A DNA stretch of 64,000 bases from NCBI GenBank assembly GCA_048884785.1, contig JBHLQM010000006.1:1289-65288 (forward strand), given 5' to 3'. Shown here in pieces: positions 43,539-63,719 of the stretch. This DNA is from Candidatus Thorarchaeota archaeon (GTDB lineage Archaea; Asgardarchaeota; Thorarchaeia; Thorarchaeales; Thorarchaeaceae). Every line of letters begins with the position of its first letter. Within the stretch, counting starts at the first letter, position 1. The position numbers and the translations under genes were made by a program. The notes beneath the pieces were generated by a model, which saw only the letters and a list, made by a program, of their open reading frames with translations, had not been told where the DNA came from and did no database searches.

Positions 43539-44075
43539 ATGATTGATAGGAATTCCCAAAAGGTGTTACACGTGCCATTTCAGCTATCTGTTGATTACAC
43601 CAAATGTACGGGTTGTAGAATCTGTGAGCTTGCATGTACGGCAAGAAATGAGGGCCGTTTTCAACCAAGTCTTGCCCGACTCAAGATCGTCAAATATGAT
43701 GATCTCGGACTCGATATACCCAATGTTTGTGGACCCTGTGAACAGGCACCTTGTGTTGATATCTGTCCGGTTTATGCAATTAGAAAAAACCCAATCTCAA
43801 AGATGACCTATCTGGAAGAAGATAGGTGTATTCTCTGTAAATCATGTGTTGGTGTATGTGTAAATGGTGTTATTCTCCTTGATACTGAATCAATGCGAAT
43901 CATCAAGTGTGACCATTGTGGTGGCAAGCCTGAGTGTGCTGAAGTCTGCCCAACAGGGGCAATCCAATACGGTCCCGCTTCAAAATTGACAACCATAGAT
44001 CGCCATGGTAAGCTATCATCCTATCTAGCAGAAATTCGCAGAACCGCAAAAGCTAAGGAACAAGGTGGCACTTGA
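43539..44075 (+). CDS. 4Fe-4S ferredoxin-type electron-transfer subunit (DmsB/CooF-like)
   Basis: Four Cys clusters (CTGCRICELAC, CGPC..PC..CP, CILCKSC..C, CDHC..C..CP); overlaps the AOR start. Confidence 0.92.
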   Translation: MIDRNSQKVLHVPFQLSVDYTKCTGCRICELACTARNEGRFQPSLARLKIVKYDDLGLDIPNVCGPCEQAPCVDICPVYAIRKNPISKMTYLEEDRCILCKSCVGVCVNGVILLDTESMRIIKCDHCGGKPECAEVCPTGAIQYGPASKLTTIDRHGKLSSYLAEIRRTAKAKEQGGT

Positions 44076-45961
44076 TTATGAAACGAGGTGGATATACAAG
44101 GAGAATTCTAAGAGTCCATCTTGATACCAGGTCTTTTCACATCGATCCCCTCCCTTCTGATTGGATACGAGATTATATTGGAGGTGATGGATTTGCAGCT
44201 AGAATACTATACAATGAGGTTCCTGCTAGGGCTGATCCTCTCGGAGTGGAGAATAAACTTCTTGTTGCAACAGGTCCAATTACTGGCACTCTGTGGCCAA
44301 TGAGTGGTAGAACAGTATTCATTTCAAAAGCTGCACAGACCGGTATCTGGGGGGAGAGTCATGTTGGGGGCTTCTTGGGTGCAGAGTTGAAATACGCTGG
44401 ATTTGACATTCTAATTATTGAAGGTCAATCAGAGAAACCTGTCTATATCTTGGTAAATGATTCGGATCTTGAAATTGTAAGTGCTAAGGAAATATGGGGC
44501 ATGAAAACTGATGAGGCCACCTCATATATTAGGAAACGTCACAAAGACCCTGATATCCAGATTGGCGCTATCGGTCCAGCCGGAGAAAATAAGGTTCGTT
44601 TCGCTTCGATAATTGTGAACAATGCTAGAGCGGCTGGTCGCACTGGAATGGGCGCCGTCTTGGGCTCAAAAAATGTAAAGGCTATTGCAATAAGGGGGCA
44701 TGGCGGAATCACTGTATCTGACCATGAGCATTTTGTCGAATTAGCCAAGAAAGCACACATGAGAGTCAGAGAGAATCCTCAAGCTCGCGAAATGGGGAAA
44801 TGGGGTACCTGGATTCTTACGGCAGTAAAGCAGGAAATTGGAGAATTGCCTACGTTCAATCATAGAACCGGCGTGTTCTCGGGATGGGACCGACTTACTG
44901 GAGAGTACATCCGACCTCGATATACAATTAGTGATAGGGCCTGCTTTGGATGCAGCCTTGGTTGCAAGAAAGTGAATTATATACCGCATGGCACCTATGC
45001 CGGTACACTTGAAGAAGGACCGGAATATGAGGGGGTCATGGCATTTGGCAGTCTCCTCGGAATTGATGATTATCCTACAACTCTGAAGGCTAATCAGATA
45101 TGTAATAAATTTGGAATGGATATTATATCCGCAGGAGCGACGATTGCCTTTGCCATGGAGCTCTTTGAGAAGAAGATAATCGATTTATCTGATACTGGAG
45201 GAATTGCTCTTGAATGGGGGGACGGGGAGCAAGCAATTCAACTACTCGAGATGATGGGCAAACGTGAGGGATTCGGTGAAGTCTTGGCCGAAGGAACCAA
45301 GATTGCCGCAGAAAAAATAGGGAAAGGCGCAGAGGAATTTGCCATTCATGTCAAAGGCCTAGAGGTTTCAGGTCAAGATGGGCGAACTCATCGCAGTATA
45401 GGACTATCCCATGCAACTGGAGCACGTGGAGCTGACCATCTGAGGTCTCTCGTTGTTGTTGATCAACTCGGATATGAACAGGTTGCCTCTGAGAGATGGG
45501 GTCGAGACAAGATTCCGGAGATACTCAATCCCTATATTGAGAAATACAAGGCAATTGCAGTTCATGAGAGTGAGAATGCCTACGCAATTCGCGACACCCT
45601 GATTGTGTGTTGGTATTCTGTTTCTTGGCCCCCTATATTCTGGATGAAGGACTTTGCTGAGATGTTGCCTTCTGTAACAGGGGAAAAAGAGCTTGGCAGT
45701 GTTGATAACCTGACTGAGATCGCTGAAAGACAAGTCACTCTCAAGCGTCTCTTTAATGCTCGAGAAGGCATCGATAGAAATGACGACATTCTTCCAAAAC
45801 GATTCACTCAGGAACCTATGCCGGAAGGACCTGGTAAAGGTCAGGTTGTTGATCTGGAACCTATGCTTAATGACTACTATAGACTGAGAGGCTGGGATAA
45901 AGATACAGGACTTCCCACAAAGGATACCATAAAGAAACTGAACCTGGGCTGGACACAATAG
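44072..45961 (+). CDS. aor: Tungsten-type aldehyde:ferredoxin oxidoreductase family enzyme
   Basis: YIGG.G, LKYAGFD, IGPAGE, AGRTGMGAVLGSKNVKA, CFGC..GC, GPEYE, RGADH and YYRLRGW. Confidence 0.92.
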   Translation: MIMKRGGYTRRILRVHLDTRSFHIDPLPSDWIRDYIGGDGFAARILYNEVPARADPLGVENKLLVATGPITGTLWPMSGRTVFISKAAQTGIWGESHVGGFLGAELKYAGFDILIIEGQSEKPVYILVNDSDLEIVSAKEIWGMKTDEATSYIRKRHKDPDIQIGAIGPAGENKVRFASIIVNNARAAGRTGMGAVLGSKNVKAIAIRGHGGITVSDHEHFVELAKKAHMRVRENPQAREMGKWGTWILTAVKQEIGELPTFNHRTGVFSGWDRLTGEYIRPRYTISDRACFGCSLGCKKVNYIPHGTYAGTLEEGPEYEGVMAFGSLLGIDDYPTTLKANQICNKFGMDIISAGATIAFAMELFEKKIIDLSDTGGIALEWGDGEQAIQLLEMMGKREGFGEVLAEGTKIAAEKIGKGAEEFAIHVKGLEVSGQDGRTHRSIGLSHATGARGADHLRSLVVVDQLGYEQVASERWGRDKIPEILNPYIEKYKAIAVHESENAYAIRDTLIVCWYSVSWPPIFWMKDFAEMLPSVTGEKELGSVDNLTEIAERQVTLKRLFNAREGIDRNDDILPKRFTQEPMPEGPGKGQVVDLEPMLNDYYRLRGWDKDTGLPTKDTIKKLNLGWTQ

Positions 45962-47966: not shown

Positions 47967-50573
47967 ATGTCAAAGGAAAAGAAAAATGTGCAAACCGCCA
48001 GCACCGTTGAAGCCATCAGGATGGCATCAGCTTCAATCTTGGGAACTACTACCAGTCAGGGGTATCCATTAGGGAGCGCAACTGGTTCAGGTTCAAAGAT
48101 GGAAGAGAATTCGGAAGCTGTAGCAATGAATATCGCCCCTCTGATTTTCTCTCTCCGCGATGAAGTTGCTGCGGCAGAAGGACTGAATCTCTTATCACTT
48201 GAGTGGGATCTAGAACGAACTCCTGGACCAGAGATATTACCTGAGCATCTCATTATAACAGGCGGAAAATCTGGTGATGTTTCTTCTCATATATGCGCAT
48301 TAGGTTGGGAGAAAGGTGTTATTGATCCATTCAAAATGGACGAATATATGGGTAGAATCGCCAAGAAAATATCTGATGTGGAAAAGGCTGTTATTGGAAA
48401 TGGAATCGAGTATGAAAGTGATGGTCTTGCCATTCTTCGAAAATTCTCCAATCGATTCAATAGTGTTATTTTTGTTGAGATGCTTGAAAGACAGTTCCAA
48501 GAGACATGGGAATCTCAGAGAATAAAACCTGAAAGCGTTGATATTGAATCAATCATAGAATTCAGGTTTCGAGATGATTTCTCTTCAAATCCCCCTGGTC
48601 CAAAAATACAGCAACGGACATTGATTGATTTCAGATTGCCTGAAGGATCGGAAGAAGAACGTCTTCTTCACTTTCGACATAGAATTCTATCACCCCGCGG
48701 ACTTGCAGCCATTTCATCCCGTATCCCTGACATGGGAAGAGCCATTCTCACTGAATTGAATGAATACGCTTACAGCATTGAGGAGGTAGAAATTGCACAA
48801 TCAACTATTGAAGCTCTTGTGGAATTCTTGGGGAAAGACCAGATTCAGCCAGATGAGCTTAGTGTACTCGCAAGCTCTTCCAAACAATTCGCACAGAAAA
48901 TGTCTGAAGCCGCAAATCTATTTGGCATACTGGTTGATGAACACTCAACATCTGGGCTACGATTGACTCTGGATGGACATCACGAAAGGATTTTGGCGGC
49001 CATTGAACAGAAATCGAATGCTCTTGATGAACTTCAAATTAAATACAGTAAGACACTTTTACACCATCTCAGTGCATCTATAGAACGTGGTTTTCCAACA
49101 TCTGATGAAATTAGGGCTTGGGAGCTTAAATCAACATTCTCATACTTTGTGGCAGTAATAAAACGAGTTCTAAGCTATCTTACTCACGAGCTACAGCAGT
49201 TCCTGCTTTTCAGTTCTGTGAAGCGGGTTCTTCGAGAAACACTTGAAGAGTTCAGGAATGATTCGGATATGGAGCAAATGGATGCAACAGAAAAACTGCT
49301 ATTCCACAAGTTCTATGCTGAATTATACTCGCTTCTCAATGCTATAATCGACCGGAAATCGTCAATTGATTCAGACTCTTCAAACATCAATCACATTGTT
49401 GAATCTATTACCAAAGAGGTGAGTGAAGAATTCAAACGAATTGATGTTTGGGATATAATTGGCTTTTCTGACCTTGCCGAGATTGCGCGTGCTGAGATCG
49501 AATCTTATGAAAACAATATCGAGAGCAAGGTCACGCGTGATTCGCTAACCAATTTATTGCAGCAATATGAGGAGTTTGTTAGCCAAACGCTTCCCGATGT
49601 TGGTGAGAAATTCATTTCTAGAGATTGGTTCAATAGTGCGATTGATGCAGCAACAAAGAATGGGAGTACAGTTTTAGATTTTCTCAGGAGTTCGATTTCC
49701 GAAGAGAGTGAAAAGACAGCTGATTGGAGGGAAGAAGCAATGACTTGGGCTGGGCTTCTAAACGAACGAGTTTCTGATTCAATGCCCGTATCAGAACAGC
49801 TCTTCACTTTCCTCAAGCTTGCATATGAGCGGCTAGGCGAAGGTGCCACTCCAACTGCAGTTTTGGAGCGAATCCGTATCTCTGATCAAAAACTCCATGA
49901 TCAATATGAAAATAATGTCAATACATGGAAGGCACTCTGCAGTGAGATTGACAGGGAGAACGAACCAATCAGGGAGAATAACAAACGACGAGAGATTCTA
50001 CTCACAGAGGCCATCACGAATTGTGAGCACGAAACAAGAGAGTATGAAATCTCGCTTCAAAATTTCCAGAAAAAGATGGAAGAATATAACTCACAACCAA
50101 TTCCCAACGAAATGCCTAGACCAACTGAACCATCAATACCAGAGTCACTGGAATCCCGCAAAGCAAGAATTGACAGTCAATATCCCCTGCAAGCTGAAAG
50201 AGAGTACCCCCCTGAACCAACTCAATCGGAAGAGATGCAAACCTATTCCGTCCTTAGAGAGCTATTAGATAGAAAGCTGGAAAAAATGGAGAGAAGCCAA
50301 GAACGAATGGAACAAGTGTTTACCCTGAAACTCCGTGCACTAAAATCAGAAGGAGCAAAAATCACAGAGGGTATCGCAATAGGACTTAGTACTGAGTTCC
50401 TCGAGTTTCTAATGAATGCGGCAGTTCGAAAACTAGGTCGACTCTTGCCTCGCGCAAAGAGAGTGTTTTTGCGAAGTCCAACAGAAAGTGGAATCGTCTA
50501 TCTAGTTTCATTTGAATTCAAAGGCGATATATTGGTAGTATCTATTGGCAACAATTTGCTGAGGAGGGTCTAG
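47967..50573 (+). CDS. Large hypothetical, mainly alpha-helical protein (868 aa)
   Basis: Long ORF with no recognised motif; coiled-coil and Pro-rich segment near the C-terminus. Confidence 0.75.
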   Translation: MSKEKKNVQTASTVEAIRMASASILGTTTSQGYPLGSATGSGSKMEENSEAVAMNIAPLIFSLRDEVAAAEGLNLLSLEWDLERTPGPEILPEHLIITGGKSGDVSSHICALGWEKGVIDPFKMDEYMGRIAKKISDVEKAVIGNGIEYESDGLAILRKFSNRFNSVIFVEMLERQFQETWESQRIKPESVDIESIIEFRFRDDFSSNPPGPKIQQRTLIDFRLPEGSEEERLLHFRHRILSPRGLAAISSRIPDMGRAILTELNEYAYSIEEVEIAQSTIEALVEFLGKDQIQPDELSVLASSSKQFAQKMSEAANLFGILVDEHSTSGLRLTLDGHHERILAAIEQKSNALDELQIKYSKTLLHHLSASIERGFPTSDEIRAWELKSTFSYFVAVIKRVLSYLTHELQQFLLFSSVKRVLRETLEEFRNDSDMEQMDATEKLLFHKFYAELYSLLNAIIDRKSSIDSDSSNINHIVESITKEVSEEFKRIDVWDIIGFSDLAEIARAEIESYENNIESKVTRDSLTNLLQQYEEFVSQTLPDVGEKFISRDWFNSAIDAATKNGSTVLDFLRSSISEESEKTADWREEAMTWAGLLNERVSDSMPVSEQLFTFLKLAYERLGEGATPTAVLERIRISDQKLHDQYENNVNTWKALCSEIDRENEPIRENNKRREILLTEAITNCEHETREYEISLQNFQKKMEEYNSQPIPNEMPRPTEPSIPESLESRKARIDSQYPLQAEREYPPEPTQSEEMQTYSVLRELLDRKLEKMERSQERMEQVFTLKLRALKSEGAKITEGIAIGLSTEFLEFLMNAAVRKLGRLLPRAKRVFLRSPTESGIVYLVSFEFKGDILVVSIGNNLLRRV

Positions 50574-50575
50574 CA

Positions 50576-53032
50576 ATGTCGAGCTCATGGATACTAAAAA
50601 CAAGGCAGATGAGTGAAGCGGGAAAGGCAACGATTTTGAGCCAAGCTTTGGCCAATCATTTGCGAAGCCCTCGTGATAGAAAACTAGTAACAGGGGAATT
50701 GAAAGAAAAACATTCCCTTGAAGATTTGCTATCCCTATTTGGTGCCTTTTACTTATACAGCTATCAAGGAATTCGGCTACTTCACTTAGATGCTTCACAA
50801 GACCTCTCTATTGAGGAGCGAGAGGCACTCACGAAAAAGGAGCATGGGCTTCTTGAGAATGAAGTTCGAATGATGCTTGGCAATAAGCAGAGAGAGGAAA
50901 TTCATGTCTCAAGAATTTCAAGCGAATTCACTCTTGAAGCATGTTCAACGCTAGAAGGGAGCAAACCAAAGGATTCCGAAACGATGCAAGTTGTTATCGA
51001 TCTCATCAGGAAATATGCAAACATGATTCCAAGCGAGTACTCCCATAATAGCGAAATCGACTTCATTACGGAGATTACTGGCTGGGCTGCAAAATGGAGG
51101 GATGAAATATATGTCAAGGCATCCGGTTTGAAGGAATCTTCATTATCACTTCGAGACGAGCTATTAAAGCCGCATGACGAGGAAGTAGCAGAAATTGCGG
51201 TTCTAAAACGAGGTATTGAGGCCGTAAAAGGGAGTATTTCCCCACCATCCAAACGTGTACTTTCGGAGGGTCTTTCCTCAATTCATTGGAATGGAATTGC
51301 TGAGGCTGTGATTGACCGCTTGTTCTCAAACAAGACCACTCTAAATGCACTCAAACTTGCACATGGCATTCGATTGTCTGCTCTGAATGCACTCGTACAT
51401 CAATTTGATTCTCCAACGACTCTTGAGGATTATGAAACTCTCATTGGTAGAGTTCTAGTTCAAAGCATTTCAGATTCGGGTGCAGATTCCAAAACTATAC
51501 TTGAAGCGATATCGCATTTTGTAGGAATTCCTCTAGATGATGTTTCAGCTTTTCTTCGGGTAAATGGGATACGAGATACTTCTCGGATTGCAGAGGGCCT
51601 GGTTGCGAGTGCATCGGAATCAAGAGCTGAAGAAATAGGTGAAGCAGCACCAGATTCATCATACACACCTGAGCAAATAGAGGAGATGACGCGTTCTCTT
51701 CGGAAACTGGAGAAATTAGAAGATACTTTGGAGAAGCCTGTGAAAGGATTACTTAGGTCGAAAGGACTCCGAGCGTCTGAGCTTGATTCAATCCATCTTG
51801 ATTTTCTGACTAAAGATCGATCAACATTACTTGGGTTTGAGATTCGCGTATTGGAGGAGTTGGAGAGAAAGACTCGTGTTCCAGATCCTGAAGAAGTAAA
51901 ACAGTTGATTCAGCTAAGGACTGAATTCCAAAGTGGCAAACTCACAGGCGCTGAAATTAGTTCGTCAATGGATATGACTAGACAGCTACAAGAAGGAAAA
52001 TCATTCTCAGGTCTCCGGATGGATTTGATTTGGTATTTTACCATAGGAATTCTGAAGAATCTAGTTCGCGTGATCGAAACCTATAATCGTTCCAAGTATG
52101 ATATTCAAAGGTCCAAGGCTTTGCTAAAGAGTATCTACGAGGACTCTGACACTCAGCTTCAATTTCTAAGAGAGGAGATTCTGATTGACCTCCTGTCTAT
52201 GCGGCTGGCTGAAATTAAGATAGTTCATCCTGAGTTGAATGCTTCAAACATATGTGCATGGTATCATGCTCGTCTCACAAATACCGATATTGAATCAGCA
52301 AAGGTTTCTCTTGATACTTCTCCGTCCCCTGTATTCTGGGGCGTGAAGGCTGAATCATTGAATTTGAGAGAACTCTCATTTGATAATTATTCAATAGCAT
52401 TTGACCTTATGCAGAGGTTCCTTGTGGCGCAAAGGTCGGAACGCGACATCAGAATTGAACAGGCGGCAGAGGCGAAAACCACTCGCGAAAAGCAAATAGA
52501 GGATAAAAAGAGCAGTGTGGATGTTTTCAGTTTTATATACACCAAATCCCACACAGTCTTTCGGGCAATTGGCCGAGTTGGAGCAAAGGGTCTAGAGTGG
52601 AATGCAAATGACGATGCTAAATGTGCTAATTTGCTATCTTTCTTCCTGAAGAACAAACGTGGAATCCCTATTTGCGGAGTTTGTGGTGAAAGCTCCGCAG
52701 ATGGAGTGTGCAGTGCTCATGGCAAAGGCAACATGACCAATTCGACTGATGTTGATAACCTCTCTTGGTTTGTTAAGAGGGCAATTAGTGATATTAAAGA
52801 AGGATTAATTGGAGCCAAATCTGAACCTTTAGCTTGGAGTGAAGCGAGGTCGATTGTGCAGCGGGAGCTTGGTATCCTCAGGCGCAGAGGAAAACTAACA
52901 AGTAGGACAAATGTCAACGCTATGCTACCTGGCGAAATCAACTATATTGTAGGTCCAGCGCTAGCAGCAGTAATTGGGAAATACTTCAATGAATCGCTCG
53001 AATATGCCGCGCGTCGAGCTGGAATTGCCTGA
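50576..53032 (+). CDS. Large hypothetical alpha-helical protein (818 aa) with C-terminal CxxC..C..H zinc finger
   Basis: Starts 2 nt after the upstream stop; CGVCGESSADGVCSAH. Confidence 0.75.
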   Translation: MSSSWILKTRQMSEAGKATILSQALANHLRSPRDRKLVTGELKEKHSLEDLLSLFGAFYLYSYQGIRLLHLDASQDLSIEEREALTKKEHGLLENEVRMMLGNKQREEIHVSRISSEFTLEACSTLEGSKPKDSETMQVVIDLIRKYANMIPSEYSHNSEIDFITEITGWAAKWRDEIYVKASGLKESSLSLRDELLKPHDEEVAEIAVLKRGIEAVKGSISPPSKRVLSEGLSSIHWNGIAEAVIDRLFSNKTTLNALKLAHGIRLSALNALVHQFDSPTTLEDYETLIGRVLVQSISDSGADSKTILEAISHFVGIPLDDVSAFLRVNGIRDTSRIAEGLVASASESRAEEIGEAAPDSSYTPEQIEEMTRSLRKLEKLEDTLEKPVKGLLRSKGLRASELDSIHLDFLTKDRSTLLGFEIRVLEELERKTRVPDPEEVKQLIQLRTEFQSGKLTGAEISSSMDMTRQLQEGKSFSGLRMDLIWYFTIGILKNLVRVIETYNRSKYDIQRSKALLKSIYEDSDTQLQFLREEILIDLLSMRLAEIKIVHPELNASNICAWYHARLTNTDIESAKVSLDTSPSPVFWGVKAESLNLRELSFDNYSIAFDLMQRFLVAQRSERDIRIEQAAEAKTTREKQIEDKKSSVDVFSFIYTKSHTVFRAIGRVGAKGLEWNANDDAKCANLLSFFLKNKRGIPICGVCGESSADGVCSAHGKGNMTNSTDVDNLSWFVKRAISDIKEGLIGAKSEPLAWSEARSIVQRELGILRRRGKLTSRTNVNAMLPGEINYIVGPALAAVIGKYFNESLEYAARRAGIA

Positions 53033-53460: not shown

Positions 53461-54867
53461 GTGGCGAGTTTCATGACAAAGCGGTTTGTTCCAAAAGGTG
53501 TAATGCCGGCGTTAGTGACTCCCTTCACTCGGGATGGAGATTTGATTGAAGAGAGTTACAAAGAGATTATCGACTATACTATAGAAAATGGCGCCACCGG
53601 GATTGTACCAGCAGGTACGACTGGTGAGTTTGTTTACATGCGAACTGAAGAGAGGAAGAAGCTTCTTCGGTTGGCGGTGGAGTATTCTGATGGAAGAGTA
53701 CCGGTGGTTGCTGGTACTGGTCAGAATAGCACTCGAGCCACTGTTGCCCTTACAAAATATGCAGCAGATATTGGCTGCAAAGCCGCCCTTGTGATATCTC
53801 CATTCTACCTTCGACCCAGTGACAAGGGATACTATGAACACTACGAAACTGTCGCACGGAAATCAGATCTTCCTATCATTCTTTACAACATTCCTCAATG
53901 CACACTCGGAGTTCTTCAGTCATCAGTAGTGGAGGATTTGGCTGAAATAGACAACATTGTAGGAATTAAGGATAGTAGCGGGAATATTGGCCATACGCTT
54001 GAGCTAATTCAGAAACTCAAAAGCAAAATGCCGGTTTTAATAGGACACGATGAGTGTTTCTTGTCAGCTGTAGCAGCTGGAGCGGAAGCTGCCATCCTGG
54101 CCTCAGGCAATATTATGCCACATATTTGGCTTGAGATAATGAAGAAGGTGAGAAAAGGAAAATTTGAGGAGGCGGCAAAAATGCAGATGTCCGTACAAAC
54201 ACTCTCACGAATAATAACTAGAAATGGAGGAGCTCCGCCAGTTAAAGCTGCCCTGAAAATGATGGGTTTTAACGCCGGAAAATCCAGAATGCCCTTAGAC
54301 TCCGGCGGAACGCTAACAGTTGAATTGAAGGAAGAGATTAGACTAGAGTTGGAGAAACTTGGGCTGATCAAAGAATTGGTTCATCCGGTCATTCAAAAAG
54401 AGATTGATATGCAGAAGGTATTGAAAGAGCAAGGCTATTCGATTGATGGAGGAGTTAAACACTCCTCTGCGTGTGTAGATGGTATCTCAGTAGGAGTTGC
54501 CGTTGGTTCCAAAAAAGGATCTCTAGGGACTGCATTTGTTGGCCTTCTTACAAGTGCGAAGATAGGACAAGAGGCACTAACAATCATTCTTGAACCTAAC
54601 CTTGCTGTAAAACCAAGTAGTATAATGCTACCACTTCAACAAATTCAGTCGATGCGTCAGGCATCGTTATTCTATGGACCTGTTCAGTCCGGAGCTGCCA
54701 AGGCATTTGCAGGCTTCATAGGAGAAGGGAGAATTCCAGAGGAATCACTGAAGGATGAGGTGGCGGTGCTTGCCATTGATGTGGATTTGAATTCTAGAAA
54801 TCGACGTACAGTTACACGCGAAACTGAGGCAGCAGTATCCGCAGCACTTGCACAGATTTGGAGGTGA
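53461..54867 (+). CDS. DapA/NanA-family class I aldolase fused to a degenerate formaldehyde-activating enzyme (Fae) domain
   Basis: ALVTPF, GTTGE, YNIP and GIKDSSG; C-terminal TAF..PNLAVKP..RQA..FYGPVQ..EGRIP resembles Fae. Confidence 0.85.
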   Translation: MASFMTKRFVPKGVMPALVTPFTRDGDLIEESYKEIIDYTIENGATGIVPAGTTGEFVYMRTEERKKLLRLAVEYSDGRVPVVAGTGQNSTRATVALTKYAADIGCKAALVISPFYLRPSDKGYYEHYETVARKSDLPIILYNIPQCTLGVLQSSVVEDLAEIDNIVGIKDSSGNIGHTLELIQKLKSKMPVLIGHDECFLSAVAAGAEAAILASGNIMPHIWLEIMKKVRKGKFEEAAKMQMSVQTLSRIITRNGGAPPVKAALKMMGFNAGKSRMPLDSGGTLTVELKEEIRLELEKLGLIKELVHPVIQKEIDMQKVLKEQGYSIDGGVKHSSACVDGISVGVAVGSKKGSLGTAFVGLLTSAKIGQEALTIILEPNLAVKPSSIMLPLQQIQSMRQASLFYGPVQSGAAKAFAGFIGEGRIPEESLKDEVAVLAIDVDLNSRNRRTVTRETEAAVSAALAQIWR

Positions 54868-54873
54868 AAAGAT

Positions 54874-56349
54874 ATGGTTTCAGCATTCAAATTCAAAGGT
54901 GTATATCCTGCCCTAGTAACTCCATTTAATGAAGAAGGCGTTGACGAGAAGAAGTATCGCGGATTGATAGATTATGTGATTAAATCAGGTGCAACCGGTG
55001 TTGTCCCTTGTGGAACAACAGGTGAATTCACCAGCATGCGTTTTGAAGAGAAAGTCGAAGCAATTAGAATCGCATGTGAAGCTGCTAAAGGACGCGTTCC
55101 AGTGCTTGCTGGAACTGGCGCAGCATACACCGGAGATGTCATTAATCTAACTAGAAAAGCCGCTGAGTTTGGAGCTGTCGCCGCCCTTGTTGTGACACCT
55201 TATTTCCAAAAGCCATCAAACAAGGAGATTTTCGAGCATTTTGCGAAGGTTGCCAATGCCAGTGATATACCGATTTTCGCATATAATATCCCGCAAGTTA
55301 CAGGTGTTCCTTTGCATTGGACTGTGGTAGATGGATTATCAGAGATTGAGGGACTGATCGGACTTAAGGATTCAAGTGGCGATTTAATCAATCTGACGAC
55401 AATCCTGGTTCGCAGACCCGAAACATTCCAAGTCGTTATAGGCCATGATGAAGTGGCTTTGCCAGCACTTGCTTCTGGATGTGATGGGGCAATCCTGGCA
55501 AGTGCAAATATCTTTCCTGATAGGTATATCAAGATGCAAGCAGCCCTTGCGAGTGGAGATCTAAAGCAAGCATTGATAATCCAGAGAAGTATCCAAAAAA
55601 CTGTACGTACTATTGTTAACAGGGGCGGAGGAATGGCTGTTAAGGCTGCCCTTAACATGATGGGTATACCAGTGGGAAAGGCGCGGCCTCCCCTTCTTGA
55701 AGGAGATTCTCTCTCTTACGAGGATATTGATGAGCTTCGGACATGTCTTGAAGATTTGCAGCTAATTCCGAGAGGCTCAGTCACATTCAAGATGGGTGAA
55801 CAATCTATTGTTGCTAGATCATATCCAAAAGCTGTTGGTTTGGTACCTGATGTCGTAGAAGACTTGACATTATTGCACGGAGAATCTCTTTGTGGAGCCG
55901 GACAAGAAGTAGCTCATATAGACCTGGTTATGGGACTTAGGGAAGGACCTTTGAAGGTTTCACTGGAGAATGCAGGTATAATCCGTCAGGGCTACCATAC
56001 TGCAGATGAGGTAAAGGACCTTAAACCCCAAACTATCTTTTCACCTACTGTTACAATTACGCATGATGGGCACAAAAAGATGGTCTATGAAGTAGCTCAA
56101 AAAGCAGTCATTGATGCTGTAACACGGAGTATTACGGACGGAGTGATTCCTGACGAGCTGATTGATGACATAATTATTGCTGTAAATGTTTTTGTGCATC
56201 CTGATGCTGTAAACGCTCGTAGAGTGCACATCAACAATTTTAGAGCAGTACGCCATGCGTTACGCCGAGCGATTGAGGGAAGACAATCCATTCAAGAGAT
56301 TAAGTCATGCAAGGAATCTGCAAGGCATCCATTTGCATATAGTCCCTAG
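54874..56349 (+). CDS. DapA/NanA-family class I aldolase fused to a formaldehyde-activating enzyme (Fae) domain
   Basis: ALVTPF, GTTGE, YNIP and GLKDSSG; C-terminal GESLCGAGQEVAHIDL, VFVHP and ARHPF are Fae hallmarks; GGAGGTGA SD. Confidence 0.88.
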   Translation: MVSAFKFKGVYPALVTPFNEEGVDEKKYRGLIDYVIKSGATGVVPCGTTGEFTSMRFEEKVEAIRIACEAAKGRVPVLAGTGAAYTGDVINLTRKAAEFGAVAALVVTPYFQKPSNKEIFEHFAKVANASDIPIFAYNIPQVTGVPLHWTVVDGLSEIEGLIGLKDSSGDLINLTTILVRRPETFQVVIGHDEVALPALASGCDGAILASANIFPDRYIKMQAALASGDLKQALIIQRSIQKTVRTIVNRGGGMAVKAALNMMGIPVGKARPPLLEGDSLSYEDIDELRTCLEDLQLIPRGSVTFKMGEQSIVARSYPKAVGLVPDVVEDLTLLHGESLCGAGQEVAHIDLVMGLREGPLKVSLENAGIIRQGYHTADEVKDLKPQTIFSPTVTITHDGHKKMVYEVAQKAVIDAVTRSITDGVIPDELIDDIIIAVNVFVHPDAVNARRVHINNFRAVRHALRRAIEGRQSIQEIKSCKESARHPFAYSP

Positions 56350-58294: not shown

Positions 58295-59431
58295 ATGCCA
58301 GATGAACATAGATTGCTAAAATTCGCCCAGAATCTCATATCAACGAATTCAGAAAGCCCTCCTGGAAGAGAGAGAGATGTTGCTAATATTATTCGCGATC
58401 ACTTGGAGTCTCATGGTTTATCCTGCATATCCATCGGTCCCACTGAACGGCCAAATCTAATTTTCTCAACAATTGATGGTGAGAAAGGTCCGCTACTTCT
58501 GCATGGTCATATGGACACTGTGCCAGTAGGTGATATTGAGAAATGGAACCATGATCCATTCTCGGCAGAAATCCATAATGGGCTCTTATATGGTCGAGGG
58601 GCATGTGATATGAAGGGACCAGTCGCAGCATTGGCTGAAACAATGATTATGTATTCCGAATCTGGCAATAAGACACCTCTAATGTTGTTGTGCACCTCAG
58701 ATGAGGAGAGCGGCTGTTCAGGGGCTGAACACGTTGCAGCAAGTGGATATCTCAAGGGAGTACGGTATGGAGTTTGTGCTGAACCAACAAATCTTGGTGT
58801 GCTGGTTGGAGAGAAGGGGATGCTGTGGACCAAGATCCGTGCTCGTGGAAAATCTGCTCATGGCTCAAGACCTAGTGAAGGCCTTAATGCAATCAATCTC
58901 TGTGCAAAAGCAATCGACGTGCTATCAGAAATGGACTATCCCTACGAACCTGATGCGTTAATGGGAGAGATGACATTCAATGTCGGGTTGATCGAAGGTG
59001 GAATTAAGATTAATGTGGTCCCTGATTATTGCGAGGCGCAGCTGGATATGAGAACTGTAAAAGGTCAAGATATTCAGCAAGTTTTGGAGGAAATGAAAAA
59101 CCGATTGCACAACCATGGGCTTGCAGAAAAAGTGGAGATTGAATATATCCACGGAAAGGAGGCTGTTCTGACTGATAGGGATGAAGAAATCGTGAGAGTT
59201 GCATTAGATGTAATCGAAACGGTAATTGGTAGGCGCCCTATTCCGAGTGCGGCTACCTATGGTACCGATTGCTCAGTTCTTCAGCCAAAGATTGGGATAA
59301 TAAACGTGATTTGTGGACCTGGGTCTATTGAACAAGCTCATCAGCCAAACGAGTTTATTCGAATTGACCAGTTATTGCAATCTGTCGATGTCTATCTTTC
59401 TATAGCTGAACATTTCAAATCTGAGCCATAA
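58295..59431 (+). CDS. M20 family metallo-hydrolase (ArgE/DapE-like)
   Basis: HGHMDTVP, YGRGACDMKG, DEE, AEPT, SAHGS and QAHQPNE. Confidence 0.92.
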   Translation: MPDEHRLLKFAQNLISTNSESPPGRERDVANIIRDHLESHGLSCISIGPTERPNLIFSTIDGEKGPLLLHGHMDTVPVGDIEKWNHDPFSAEIHNGLLYGRGACDMKGPVAALAETMIMYSESGNKTPLMLLCTSDEESGCSGAEHVAASGYLKGVRYGVCAEPTNLGVLVGEKGMLWTKIRARGKSAHGSRPSEGLNAINLCAKAIDVLSEMDYPYEPDALMGEMTFNVGLIEGGIKINVVPDYCEAQLDMRTVKGQDIQQVLEEMKNRLHNHGLAEKVEIEYIHGKEAVLTDRDEEIVRVALDVIETVIGRRPIPSAATYGTDCSVLQPKIGIINVICGPGSIEQAHQPNEFIRIDQLLQSVDVYLSIAEHFKSEP

Positions 59432-60740: not shown

Positions 60741-62039
60741 ATGAAGGCGCTAATTCTTACGGCTGGCTCTGGAAACAGATTGCGTCCGTTGACATCAAAT
60801 AGATCAAAATCCATGTTAATGATTGCAGGGCGCCCTGTACTCGATTATATCCTTGGTAGTCTGAAGGAGAATGGGATTAAAGACGTTGTTGTAGTCGTTG
60901 GTCATGGACGAGAAGAGCTAATTAACCATTTTCAGCATGGTGGTGAACTGGGACTTCAAATTCGCTACGTGGTTCAACATGAACAAAAGGGAGTCGAGCA
61001 CGCAATTCTCACAGCAAAGGAAGAACTCGATGCAGATGAAGAATTCCTACTTGTCAATGGAGATGTATTAGTTGAGTCGGATATGGTGACAAGAACTCTC
61101 TATAACCATCAAAGTATGTCTGCAGACGCCACAATGCTCGTAACTCTGGTTTCAAACCCAGAGCAATTTGGTACAGTAAAAATTGGGAAGAATGGTGCAG
61201 TTGAGCGCCTTGTGGAAAAAGGGGGACCTAGCAGATATGTCAGCAACTATGCAGTTGCAGGGGTTTCAGCATTTTCAACAAGGCTTCTAGATCTGCTAGA
61301 AAAATATGGAACCATGGAACAGACTATTGAAAAAATGATTGAAGAAAAAATGACAGTCACCGCAGTAGTCTGGGAAAAGGAGTGGGCAGAGTTCACGTGG
61401 CCCTGGGATATACTAAAGGCAAATCGACTGGTCGTGGATAATCTTCTGAAAGGAAAAGGTAGTTTCATTGCAGAATCTGCTGACGTACATAATAGTGCTG
61501 TACTTGAAGGTCCGGTATACATAGGAAAAGATGTAGTAGTTCGTCCTGGTGCAACTCTTAGGGGTCCGGTGTATATCGGAAACAATGTCTATGTGGGAAA
61601 TAATGCTCTTATTCGTGACTATGCGAGTCTATGCGATGGTGTTCATATTGGATATGCAGTTGAAGTTAGGAATAGCATGATTTTTGACAAAGTGAATGTT
61701 GGCCGGATGACGTATATTGCAGATTCGATTGTCGGTGCCAATAGCTGCATCGAAGCCGGAGCTCAAATGTGGAATTGGCGTCCGGGCAAGAAACCTCTTT
61801 TCATAGATGACGATGGGGAAAAAGTCCAAATTCCCTTCAGAAAATTTGGAGCGATGATCGGAGACAACGTTGTGCTGGGAGTGAATTCATCGATATATCC
61901 TGCGCGCAGGATTGGAGAAGGTAGTTCAATTGCACCCGGTTGTGTTATCGACCAAGATATTCCTCCATATAGCGAAGTTTCAGTGAAGCAGGTACTTGAA
62001 ATCAGACCTATATCTGAGGAAACAGACCAATGTGAATGA
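60741..62039 (+). CDS. glmU: Bifunctional sugar-1-phosphate nucleotidyltransferase/acetyltransferase (archaeal GlmU-like)
   Basis: LTAGSGNRLRPLT..RSK, NGD, LVEK and PWDIL; C-terminal hexapeptide repeats. Confidence 0.85.
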   Translation: MKALILTAGSGNRLRPLTSNRSKSMLMIAGRPVLDYILGSLKENGIKDVVVVVGHGREELINHFQHGGELGLQIRYVVQHEQKGVEHAILTAKEELDADEEFLLVNGDVLVESDMVTRTLYNHQSMSADATMLVTLVSNPEQFGTVKIGKNGAVERLVEKGGPSRYVSNYAVAGVSAFSTRLLDLLEKYGTMEQTIEKMIEEKMTVTAVVWEKEWAEFTWPWDILKANRLVVDNLLKGKGSFIAESADVHNSAVLEGPVYIGKDVVVRPGATLRGPVYIGNNVYVGNNALIRDYASLCDGVHIGYAVEVRNSMIFDKVNVGRMTYIADSIVGANSCIEAGAQMWNWRPGKKPLFIDDDGEKVQIPFRKFGAMIGDNVVLGVNSSIYPARRIGEGSSIAPGCVIDQDIPPYSEVSVKQVLEIRPISEETDQCE

Positions 62040-62825: not shown

Positions 62826-63719
62826 ATTAGCCGCAAGAAATGGGGAAAATCAGCTACCAAAACAGAGAAACTAATTCGAGATGCTGCTCCGAAGAAAGAA
62901 ACACTCAACGAGATTGATCAGTATTTAGCAAAAGCAAAGTCTGTTACACCATACGATATCGCAAATAGGTTTAGCGTCAGAATGAGTGTAGCTAGGCGAA
63001 TACTGCGCGAAAAAGAATCTGAAGGAGTTGTTGTCCCCTACATTAAGGAGAGTGGTTTTGTGGTCTACTCAACTCCTGCCGAGATGGCAAAACGTGAAGG
63101 TGGAGCTCCTATAATGGCTGCTGATGTGTTTGAAGAGATTGCTGCTTCTGTTCCAAAGGAATCAATTATTGATGAAGAAATGGAAGCGGCATTAGCCGCT
63201 GCATCTGCTGCCGGAACAGCTATTAAGCCGAGCAAATTGGCATATAAGCGACGAGAACTGGGTGAAAGAAAGGAACGGAAGGATAAATTGCCTGAGGTTG
63301 TAGTCGAACCTCTTCCCGTAGAATCAACTCCAAAATCTCCATTGCCTGAGAGAACTGAGGAAGAGATACCGAGAAAGGAAGAAAAGCCCAAGAAAACCAC
63401 GAAGAAGGTCACTGAAGAGAAGCCAAAGAAGACCACCAAGAAGGCTGTTGAAGAGAAACCTAAGAAGTCAACAAAGAAAGCTGAGGAAGAGACGCCAAAG
63501 AAGACCATCAAGAAGGCTGTTGAAGAGAAACCTAAGAAGTCAACAAAGAAGGCTGCTGAGGAAGAGAAGCCAAAGAAGTCAACAAAGAAGGCTGCTGAAG
63601 AGAAACCTAAGAAGTCAACAAAGAAGGCTGCTGAAGAGAAACCTAAGAAGACCACCAAGAAGGCTGCTGAAGAAACGCCCAAAAAAGAAACTAAGAAGAC
63701 AACGAAGGGAGAAAAATAG
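62826..63719 (+). CDS. rps25e: Ribosomal protein eS25 with long C-terminal KE-rich repeat extension
   Basis: The frame of track ORF 62982..63719 continues upstream as SRKKWGK...KSVTPYDIANRFSVRMSVARRILRE..EGVV..VVY, the eS25 winged helix. Start inferred at ATT 62826 (or 62820) after AGGAG. Confidence 0.82.
   Translation: MSRKKWGKSATKTEKLIRDAAPKKETLNEIDQYLAKAKSVTPYDIANRFSVRMSVARRILREKESEGVVVPYIKESGFVVYSTPAEMAKREGGAPIMAADVFEEIAASVPKESIIDEEMEAALAAASAAGTAIKPSKLAYKRRELGERKERKDKLPEVVVEPLPVESTPKSPLPERTEEEIPRKEEKPKKTTKKVTEEKPKKTTKKAVEEKPKKSTKKAEEETPKKTIKKAVEEKPKKSTKKAAEEEKPKKSTKKAAEEKPKKSTKKAAEEKPKKTTKKAAEETPKKETKKTTKGEK
63378..63704 (+). repeat. Nine tandem ~36-bp coding repeats (EEKPKK[S/T]TKKAA)
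   Basis: GAAGAGAAACCTAAGAAGTCAACAAAGAAGGCTGCT-like units; one unit is 39 bp. Confidence 0.9.

Follow-up and report, generated by a model that had tools for sequence, protein, structure and literature searches.

In the bifunctional Fae-Hps proteins of methanogens (NF009833; H4MPT hydro-lyase / 3-hexulose-6-phosphate synthase), a formaldehyde-releasing or -fixing aldolase is fused to a formaldehyde-activating enzyme (Fae) domain, coupling a C–C lyase to methylene-tetrahydromethanopterin (methylene-H4MPT). 4-Hydroxy-2-oxobutanoate (HOB) is the keto acid of homoserine. In engineered E. coli, HOB aldolase and transaminase steps are known (PMC8879981), and PanB cleaves HOB to pyruvate and methylene-tetrahydrofolate (Bouzon 2017, via PMC6966089); HOB itself is termed a non-natural or non-native metabolite (PMC6966089, PMC8879981). 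Here, we analyzed a tandem pair of genes in a 64,000-nucleotide stretch of a Candidatus Thorarchaeota genome (contig JBHLQM010000006.1; “the window”), which encodes two aldolase-Fae fusion proteins, subunits A and B. The best explanation of the comparative sequence evidence, which we rate slightly above even odds, is that A and B would form a heteromer converting HOB to pyruvate and methylene-pterin in the catabolic direction.

Gene A lies at 53473..54867 (+) and encodes 464 amino acids, with an ATG start at 53473 that agrees with the catalogued protein P0121, although an alternative GTG start at 53461 is possible. Gene B lies at 54874..56349 (+) and encodes 491 amino acids. Six nucleotides (54868..54873, +) separate the stop of A from the start of B, as expected for co-translated subunits, and the order A then B is kept in every pair-bearing locus examined. 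Profile searches bore out the original prediction of tandem aldolase-Fae fusions, placing PF00701 (E = 5.8e-78 for A and 1.7e-71 for B) before PF08714 (E = 1.5e-22 and 5.5e-30; 80.7 and 104.9 bits against a Pfam cut-off of 27) in each open reading frame (ORF), with all matches above the gathering cut-offs. The motifs it had listed, GTTGE, YNIPQCT or YNIPQVT, and KDSSG, are likewise all present. A and B share 37% identity. Each has more than 100 orthologous clusters at ~65–81% identity, the nearest named homologues being from Thorarchaeota, so the ORFs are not due to chance. The source genome (3.6 Mb, 91% complete, 5.4% contamination; the window lies on its contig C6) contains no Fae domains other than these two. 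A literature search found no paper on a fusion of Fae with dihydrodipicolinate synthase (DHDPS), and returned only reviews and synthetic pathways for Asgard formaldehyde metabolism and natural HOB pathways. The pair is real, conserved, mis-annotated and unstudied.

Both proteins carry the database label 4-hydroxy-tetrahydrodipicolinate synthase, which would make them lysine-synthesis enzymes that happen to carry a Fae domain. This label is in keeping with their best PDB matches, which are DHDPS for both, and with their scores against TIGR00674 (dapA; 230.5 for A and 231.9 for B, cut-off 206.15). However, Arg138 of the E. coli enzyme, required for binding of aspartate semialdehyde in DHDPS (PMC3188589), is replaced by Cys in A and by Val in B, and is absent in 256/256 aligned members of the pair. 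The source genome yielded no DapB, Asd or aspartokinase, DapB was found in 0/11 other Thorarchaeota genomes, and all eight Lokiarchaeia tested encode, besides the fusion, a separate Arg-bearing DapA beside dapB, mostly together with lysA and dapF. These results agree with the earlier claim that the pair lacks the Arg of true DHDPS and hence is not DHDPS, and leave the database label with hardly any likelihood.

The pyruvate site of DHDPS (Thr44/Thr45, Tyr133 and Lys161) is nonetheless matched in the pair. The barrel of A is of the DapA/NAL-family class I aldolase type, with equivalents of Thr-Thr, Tyr133, Lys161 and Tyr107 intact, and the barrel of B keeps Lys161 and Tyr133, with Phe at the position of Tyr107. 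In the Thorarchaeota alignment the catalytic Tyr occurs in all members and the Schiff-base Lys in 124/124 A and 109/114 B sequences, and a GxDE motif after strand 7 is nearly invariant in the family alignment. The loss of Arg138 with retention of the Schiff-base residues therefore points to a class I aldolase of the pyruvate type that uses a different acceptor. The source genome also encodes a third, unfused DapA-family protein (L076, C23:24017-24916, –), whose best match is the KdgD subfamily, below the cut-off.

Sequence alignments of the Fae domains show that their motifs are divided between the two chains. The active site of Fae lies between neighboring subunits, with His22 as acid. A keeps the EPNL..KP loop and the RQ..GP.Q helix and has lost His22, the VFxH and NN motifs, and the C-terminal RHP arm; B keeps GE..EVAHxD (containing His22), VFVHP, NN and RHP, but its PNL loop has been lost, as has the GP of the GP.Q helix. 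The complete set (His22, PNL loop, GP.Q and C-terminal HPF arm) is obtained only when A and B are summed, and both score below the TIGR03126 (Fae) cut-off of 118.05 (A 74.7, B 116.6), neither Fae domain being complete in one chain. The division is consistent across Thorarchaeota: His22 is found in 113/114 B and 0/124 A sequences (and in 41/41 single-copy relatives), and deletions have removed the PN loop from 114/114 B sequences and the C-terminal RHP arm from 124/124 A sequences, all of which keep the PN loop.

A survey of 301 sampled genomes of the phylum (matches at E <= 1e-40) recovered the fusion in 161. It is present in 72 of the 76 genomes of the window's own family, almost always in the form of two genes; several other families have it as a single gene, and further members occur in Bathyarchaeia and Chloroflexota. 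The single-copy relatives all keep the full aldolase and the full Fae motif sets, and align to Methylobacterium extorquens Fae over the whole domain (E = 1.7e-38). Because they combine both motif sets that A and B divide, a heteromer arising from one old duplication is likely, and we consider with good confidence that A and B are complementary halves of one heteromeric enzyme rather than two full enzymes; by inference, they would share one composite Fae site. Across Thorarchaeota, Baldrarchaeum, Bathyarchaeia and Chloroflexota, the A-types group in one supported clade and the B-types in another, a pattern consistent with one duplication, though shared losses can also draw sequences together.

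The two barrels appear to differ in importance. Phe stands at the trans-acting Tyr107 position in 113/114 Thorarchaeota B sequences, a Tyr-to-Phe change that human HOG aldolase tolerates (PMC3188589), and the Schiff-base Lys is lost in five Thorarchaeota B proteins; on these grounds, the aldolase that Thorarchaeota cannot do without is probably the barrel of A. In one Thorarchaeota genus, B lacks both the Schiff-base Lys and the Thr-Thr motif, with A intact (L056:8046-9524, L059:9287-10735). A structural model of the A+B complex gave an ipSAE of 0.76, against 0.00 for the best of three controls, and the mark set for this score was reached by 58/80 solved pairs and 2/110 mismatched pairs. The model runs had at least 90% of contacts in common, with partner pLDDT of at least 89. 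The modeled interface corresponds to the known tight dimer of DapA plus the C-terminal arm of B. As a prediction, the model supports A-B binding.

The genomic companions of the fusion indicate what its substrate may be. Elsewhere, the fusion directly follows one of two genes, c1 (~427 amino acids; 16 Asgard loci) or c5 (~315 amino acids; 11 loci), neither of which has a Pfam, NCBIfam or PDB sequence match. Among c5 loci, the fusion is present in 29 and a PanB-like gene in 14, and the two never occur together. In bacteria, 55 of 80 c1 loci include a PanB-like gene, adjacent to c1 in 51, and 6/13 Chloroflexota c1 loci have a PanB-family gene; loci joining c1 or c5 to PanB sometimes also contain formate-tetrahydrofolate ligase and FolD. 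A third arrangement occurs in two large Asgard families, f5 and f22, where the fusion is absent at E <= 1e-40 (0/28 and 0/21 genomes, respectively): a class I aminotransferase and a homoserine dehydrogenase (HSD) directly follow c1. We had expected PanB beside c1 in fusion-less Asgard genomes, which failed, the aminotransferase and HSD being found there instead. The accompanying one-carbon enzymes differ accordingly among the genomes compared: Mch is present in 32/32 chosen fusion-bearing Asgard genomes and 0/15 genomes of f5 and f22, and the 16 genomes with PanB linked to c1 or c5 contain Fae in 0/16 and Mch in 1/16.

The linked PanB is a second copy in 3/3 tested genomes of that kind with PanC, and has Leu, Leu and Ile at the positions of E. 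coli I202, I212 and V214 (LxI in 52/53). Shrinking these residues in PanB admits larger donors (PMC7610986); the bulkier residues of the linked paralogues therefore suggest a smaller donor, such as pyruvate. A PanB tree was too small to serve as proof of a single origin for these paralogues. HOB is the only metabolite common to the fusion, a small-pocket PanB, and an aminotransferase with HSD, which is why we propose it as the substrate. This gives the HOB chemistry put forward by the original prediction independent support from gene context, since a PanB paralogue or an aminotransferase with HSD replaces the fusion, although the argument is one of guilt by association. We regard HOB chemistry, in either direction, as likely, at roughly three chances in four or a little less.

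Coupling of the aldolase to Fae on another compound has to be weighed here, either a different hydroxymethyl-2-oxoacid (ketopantoate or 3-methyl-HOB) or 2-oxo-3-butenoate in a NahE-type hydratase-aldolase reaction. The canonical substrate of the exchangeable PanB family is ketopantoate, and hydratase-aldolases are represented in the DapA family. The source genome, however, already contains a normal PanB whose pocket is canonical, bulkier residues line the pocket of the linked paralogues, and the aminotransferase with HSD fits only an unbranched C4 skeleton. Ketopantoate synthesis was rejected as the best reading of the fusion's role, and we consider another substrate altogether improbable, though not negligibly so.

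The fusion family also depends on c1 as an unlinked partner gene, a point that the original prediction had missed. In the source genome c1 lies on another contig (C62:13440-14720), and it is present in 69 of the 76 genomes of the family. The c1 family comprises more than 8000 clusters; a metagenome scan with one distant c1 query returned no matches. An atlas search gave no lead for c1 and a U32-like lead for c5. The structural model of c1 is poor (pLDDT 54, best Z 7.1), and that of c5 is good (pLDDT 91) but yields only generic TIM-barrel matches, with CutC, U32 and class II aldolase tied at Z 13.5–14.6. Two copies of c1 occur in the source genome (L074:10441-11721 on C62 and L075:3-1232 on C112), 75% identical and each adjoining a ferritin-like gene and SerRS; this duplication is probably due to contamination of the assembly. 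Distant homologues of c5 precede acetaldehyde dehydrogenase and 4-hydroxy-2-oxovalerate aldolase on a Mycobacterium plasmid (L172:8121-10542), and lie in a sugar-acid cluster in Thermomicrobium (L169:4906-8936) and in a biosynthetic cluster with a kinase, an aminotransferase and a di-iron enzyme on an Enterobacter plasmid (L170:6901-13613). Fourteen bacterial c1 loci contain a 622-amino-acid Glu/Leu/Phe/Val dehydrogenase with CBS domains (e.g., L311:1233-3101), which directly follows c1 where inspected and whose substrate would point to the pathway input.

On the proposed mechanism, A and B would constitute one heteromer derived from a single old duplication of a homo-oligomeric aldolase-Fae fusion. 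HOB, supplied by the unlinked c1 from an amino-acid skeleton, would be cleaved to pyruvate and formaldehyde at the class I aldolase site (through the Schiff-base Lys; the A site is never lost in Thorarchaeota), and the composite Fae site, formed by His22 and the C-terminal arm of B together with the PNL loop of A, would condense the released formaldehyde with H4MPT or a similar tetrahydropterin carrier. The pair would dispose of HOB as a net 2-oxoacid hydroxymethyltransferase, a functional analogue of the folate-dependent PanB paralogue, and pyruvate and the one-carbon unit would enter central metabolism. Alternatively, the two domains could be uncoupled, the barrel acting on a larger substrate as a 2-keto-3-deoxy-acid aldolase or dehydratase and Fae serving as a formaldehyde scavenger, pterin sensor or assembly domain. 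The GxDE motif resembles that of the sugar-acid aldolases of the family, distant c5 homologues occur in sugar-acid clusters, the only Fae domains of the source genome are those of A and B, and no confident Fae-Fae contacts are listed in the complex model, which covers the A-B pairing. Uncoupled domains are difficult to square with single-copy members that all keep both full motif sets, and replacement of the fusion by a member of a hydroxymethyltransferase family beside the same partners argues for one-carbon transfer; we therefore judge uncoupling to be the least probable of the alternatives save for the DHDPS label.

As to direction, the same enzyme could run anabolically, joining methylene-pterin and pyruvate to HOB, which would be transaminated to homoserine for threonine, methionine or isoleucine in organisms without the aspartate pathway, with c1 consuming HOB or homoserine. 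Thorarchaeota genomes lack HSD (0/11) and mostly lack Asd-like genes, the fusion and c1-linked HSD are mutually exclusive, and the source genome encodes an orthologue of the c1-linked aminotransferase (E = 2.8e-160). A threonine-synthase-like (ThrC-like) gene two genes from c1 in six Thorarchaeota loci also fits the anabolic direction, and the aldol reaction of formaldehyde with pyruvate is a working step of the synthetic homoserine cycle (PMC8879981). Against this, the f5 and f22 families, in which the aminotransferase and HSD follow c1, have neither Asd (0/15) nor aspartokinase (0/4) to feed HSD biosynthetically, so HSD there more simply oxidizes homoserine. None of 35 Asgard genomes yielded a homoserine kinase (ThrB), lineages with their own Ask, Asd, HSD and ThrC genes still keep the fusion, and an aldehyde:ferredoxin oxidoreductase-like gene, recognized by eye, follows HSD in one bacterial c1 locus. 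One Lokiarchaeon has a ThrH-like phosphotransferase, also recognized by eye, beside HSD and ThrC (L234:4797-7829). On the HSD-family, ThrB, fusion-retention and dehydrogenase evidence we favor a role for c1 or c5 in making HOB, with the three modules disposing of it. Given HOB, we hold the catabolic direction to be fairly likely, at about two chances in three, and the anabolic alternative to have about one chance in five. As to the input, c1 might act on the keto acid of methionine, eliminating methanethiol and then hydrating the product to HOB; this idea follows from the chemistry alone, and we consider it doubtful.

Several observations weigh against the catabolic heteromer, in addition to the ThrC-like gene near c1. 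The genome sets were partly chosen by presence of the fusion, and are related and not independent. In the source genome c1 is not adjacent to the pair, and a Met/Cys gamma-lyase-family gene offers a competing route of methionine degradation. The folds of c1 and c5 are generic TIM barrels, and their mutual homology is weak (hhalign probability 9%). The roles given to the Fae residues are putative ones, taken over from the Fae structure (1Y5Y/1Y60), and the A+B model may have passed by likeness, since its interface is that of the known DapA tight dimer. The remaining points concern the one-carbon carrier.

Mch, Mtd and Ftr are present in the source genome, together with Fhs and a FolD-like gene, so the host has the H4MPT-type enzymes that the original prediction had named as a co-occurrence check. 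RFA-P synthase catalyzes the first step of methanopterin synthesis. It was found in only 1/15 Thorarchaeota genomes (neither in the source genome nor in 13 of the 14 others), and in 12/12 genomes tested from four single-copy families; in addition, Mch was not found in 5/9 Chloroflexota genomes with fusion pairs. For these reasons the carrier may not be H4MPT: H4MPT is likely, but folate, or a carrier that is scavenged or modified, may serve. The occurrence of Mch, Mtd and Ftr without RFA-P synthase in Thorarchaeota hints at methanopterin scavenging or another carrier. CitG-family genes are linked to methanopterin clusters, and one faces the fusion in Hermodarchaeota-type loci (L045:7194-8177).

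Examination of the window around the pair gave no clue to the pathway: the neighbors are cutA, two large ORFs of no known family, an M20 deacylase, AlaXM and a GlmU-like gene. The large ORFs (47967-50573 and 50576-53032, +; 868 and 818 amino acids, without Pfam match) keep their order upstream of the pair in 9/11 Thorarchaeota loci. The M20 deacylase (58295-59431, +) and the GlmU-like gene (60741-62039, +) lie near the fusion in Thorarchaeota and Hermodarchaeota-type loci (15 and 14 loci), which may be a relic of old synteny or reflect a functional link. The region 43539-45961 (+), about 8 kb upstream of the pair, encodes a ferredoxin-like subunit and an aldehyde:ferredoxin oxidoreductase, recognized from the sequence, and downstream, 62982-63719 (+) encodes a 245-amino-acid protein of histone-H1-like composition, whose long tail is a Lys/Glu-rich repeat (EEKPKK.TKK units). 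A scan with sigma-70 promoter and terminator models, which are ill-suited to archaea, gave results at chance level.

The pair probably marks an undescribed pathway, and the proposed reaction is so far described only in engineered bacteria. A broader proposal, which we hold tentatively at somewhat below even odds, is a natural and widespread HOB-centered pathway of amino-acid metabolism in anaerobic archaea and bacteria of sediments, in which c1 or c5 would make HOB, perhaps from the keto acid of methionine with release of methanethiol, and three unrelated modules would route it on, one of them the split methanopterin-type hydroxymethyltransferase encoded here. Annotation pipelines currently count the fusion as lysine synthesis, inflating predicted pathways. 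If the proposal is true, it would name the reaction of an enzyme found in most Thorarchaeota, many Lokiarchaeia, other Asgard lineages, Bathyarchaeia and some Chloroflexota, and would show how peptide fermenters feed amino-acid carbon into the one-carbon (Wood–Ljungdahl-type) branch. HOB would become an established natural metabolite, synthetic one-carbon assimilation pathways would gain a dedicated pyruvate-formaldehyde aldolase for a step at which they now use weak promiscuous enzymes, the function of two large unannotated families (c1 and c5) would become directly testable, and the pair would be a clear example of a single active site shared out between gene duplicates.

By analogy, the design of the pair may be that of Fae-Hps and its net reaction that of PanB. 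Unlike in Fae-Hps, the aldolase of the pair is an N-terminal DapA/NAL class I pyruvate barrel rather than Hps, a domain of the OMP decarboxylase type, and its gene is split into two complementary paralogues; the scores against NF009833 (A 69.8 and B 88.5, cut-off 274) cover the Fae part only. With PanB it would share net hydroxymethyl transfer between a 2-oxoacid and a tetrahydropterin, and a PanB paralogue replaces the fusion beside the same partners. PanB, however, is a metal-dependent single-domain enzyme using folate, whereas the fusion combines a Schiff-base aldolase with a separate Fae site and a probably methanopterin-type carrier; the two are unrelated in sequence, PF02548 gave no match in A or B in the Pfam search, and the likeness is by context only. 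M. extorquens Fae (PDB 1Y5Y, 1Y60) aligns with the single-copy relatives over the whole domain with the His22 motif kept, but forms a five-chain ring, whereas here the motif set is divided over two genes and fused to a barrel that dimerizes with two-fold symmetry. From DHDPS (TIGR00674), which it matches in fold, pyruvate-binding residues, profile score and predicted tight-dimer interface, the pair differs in lacking Arg138 and any dapB or asd context, in carrying Fae, and in coexisting with true DapA in Lokiarchaeia. The pyruvate-releasing class I chemistry of HOGA, KDG aldolase, NanA and YjhH/YagE is a further likeness, and in HOGA, too, Arg138 is absent and loss of the trans Tyr is tolerated (PMC3188589), although A and B fall below the cut-offs of the NanA, KDG aldolase, KdgD and HpaI equivalogs. 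Finally, the HOB aldolase activity known from the synthetic homoserine cycle is promiscuous and engineered (PMC8879981), whereas the enzyme proposed here would be dedicated to the reaction.

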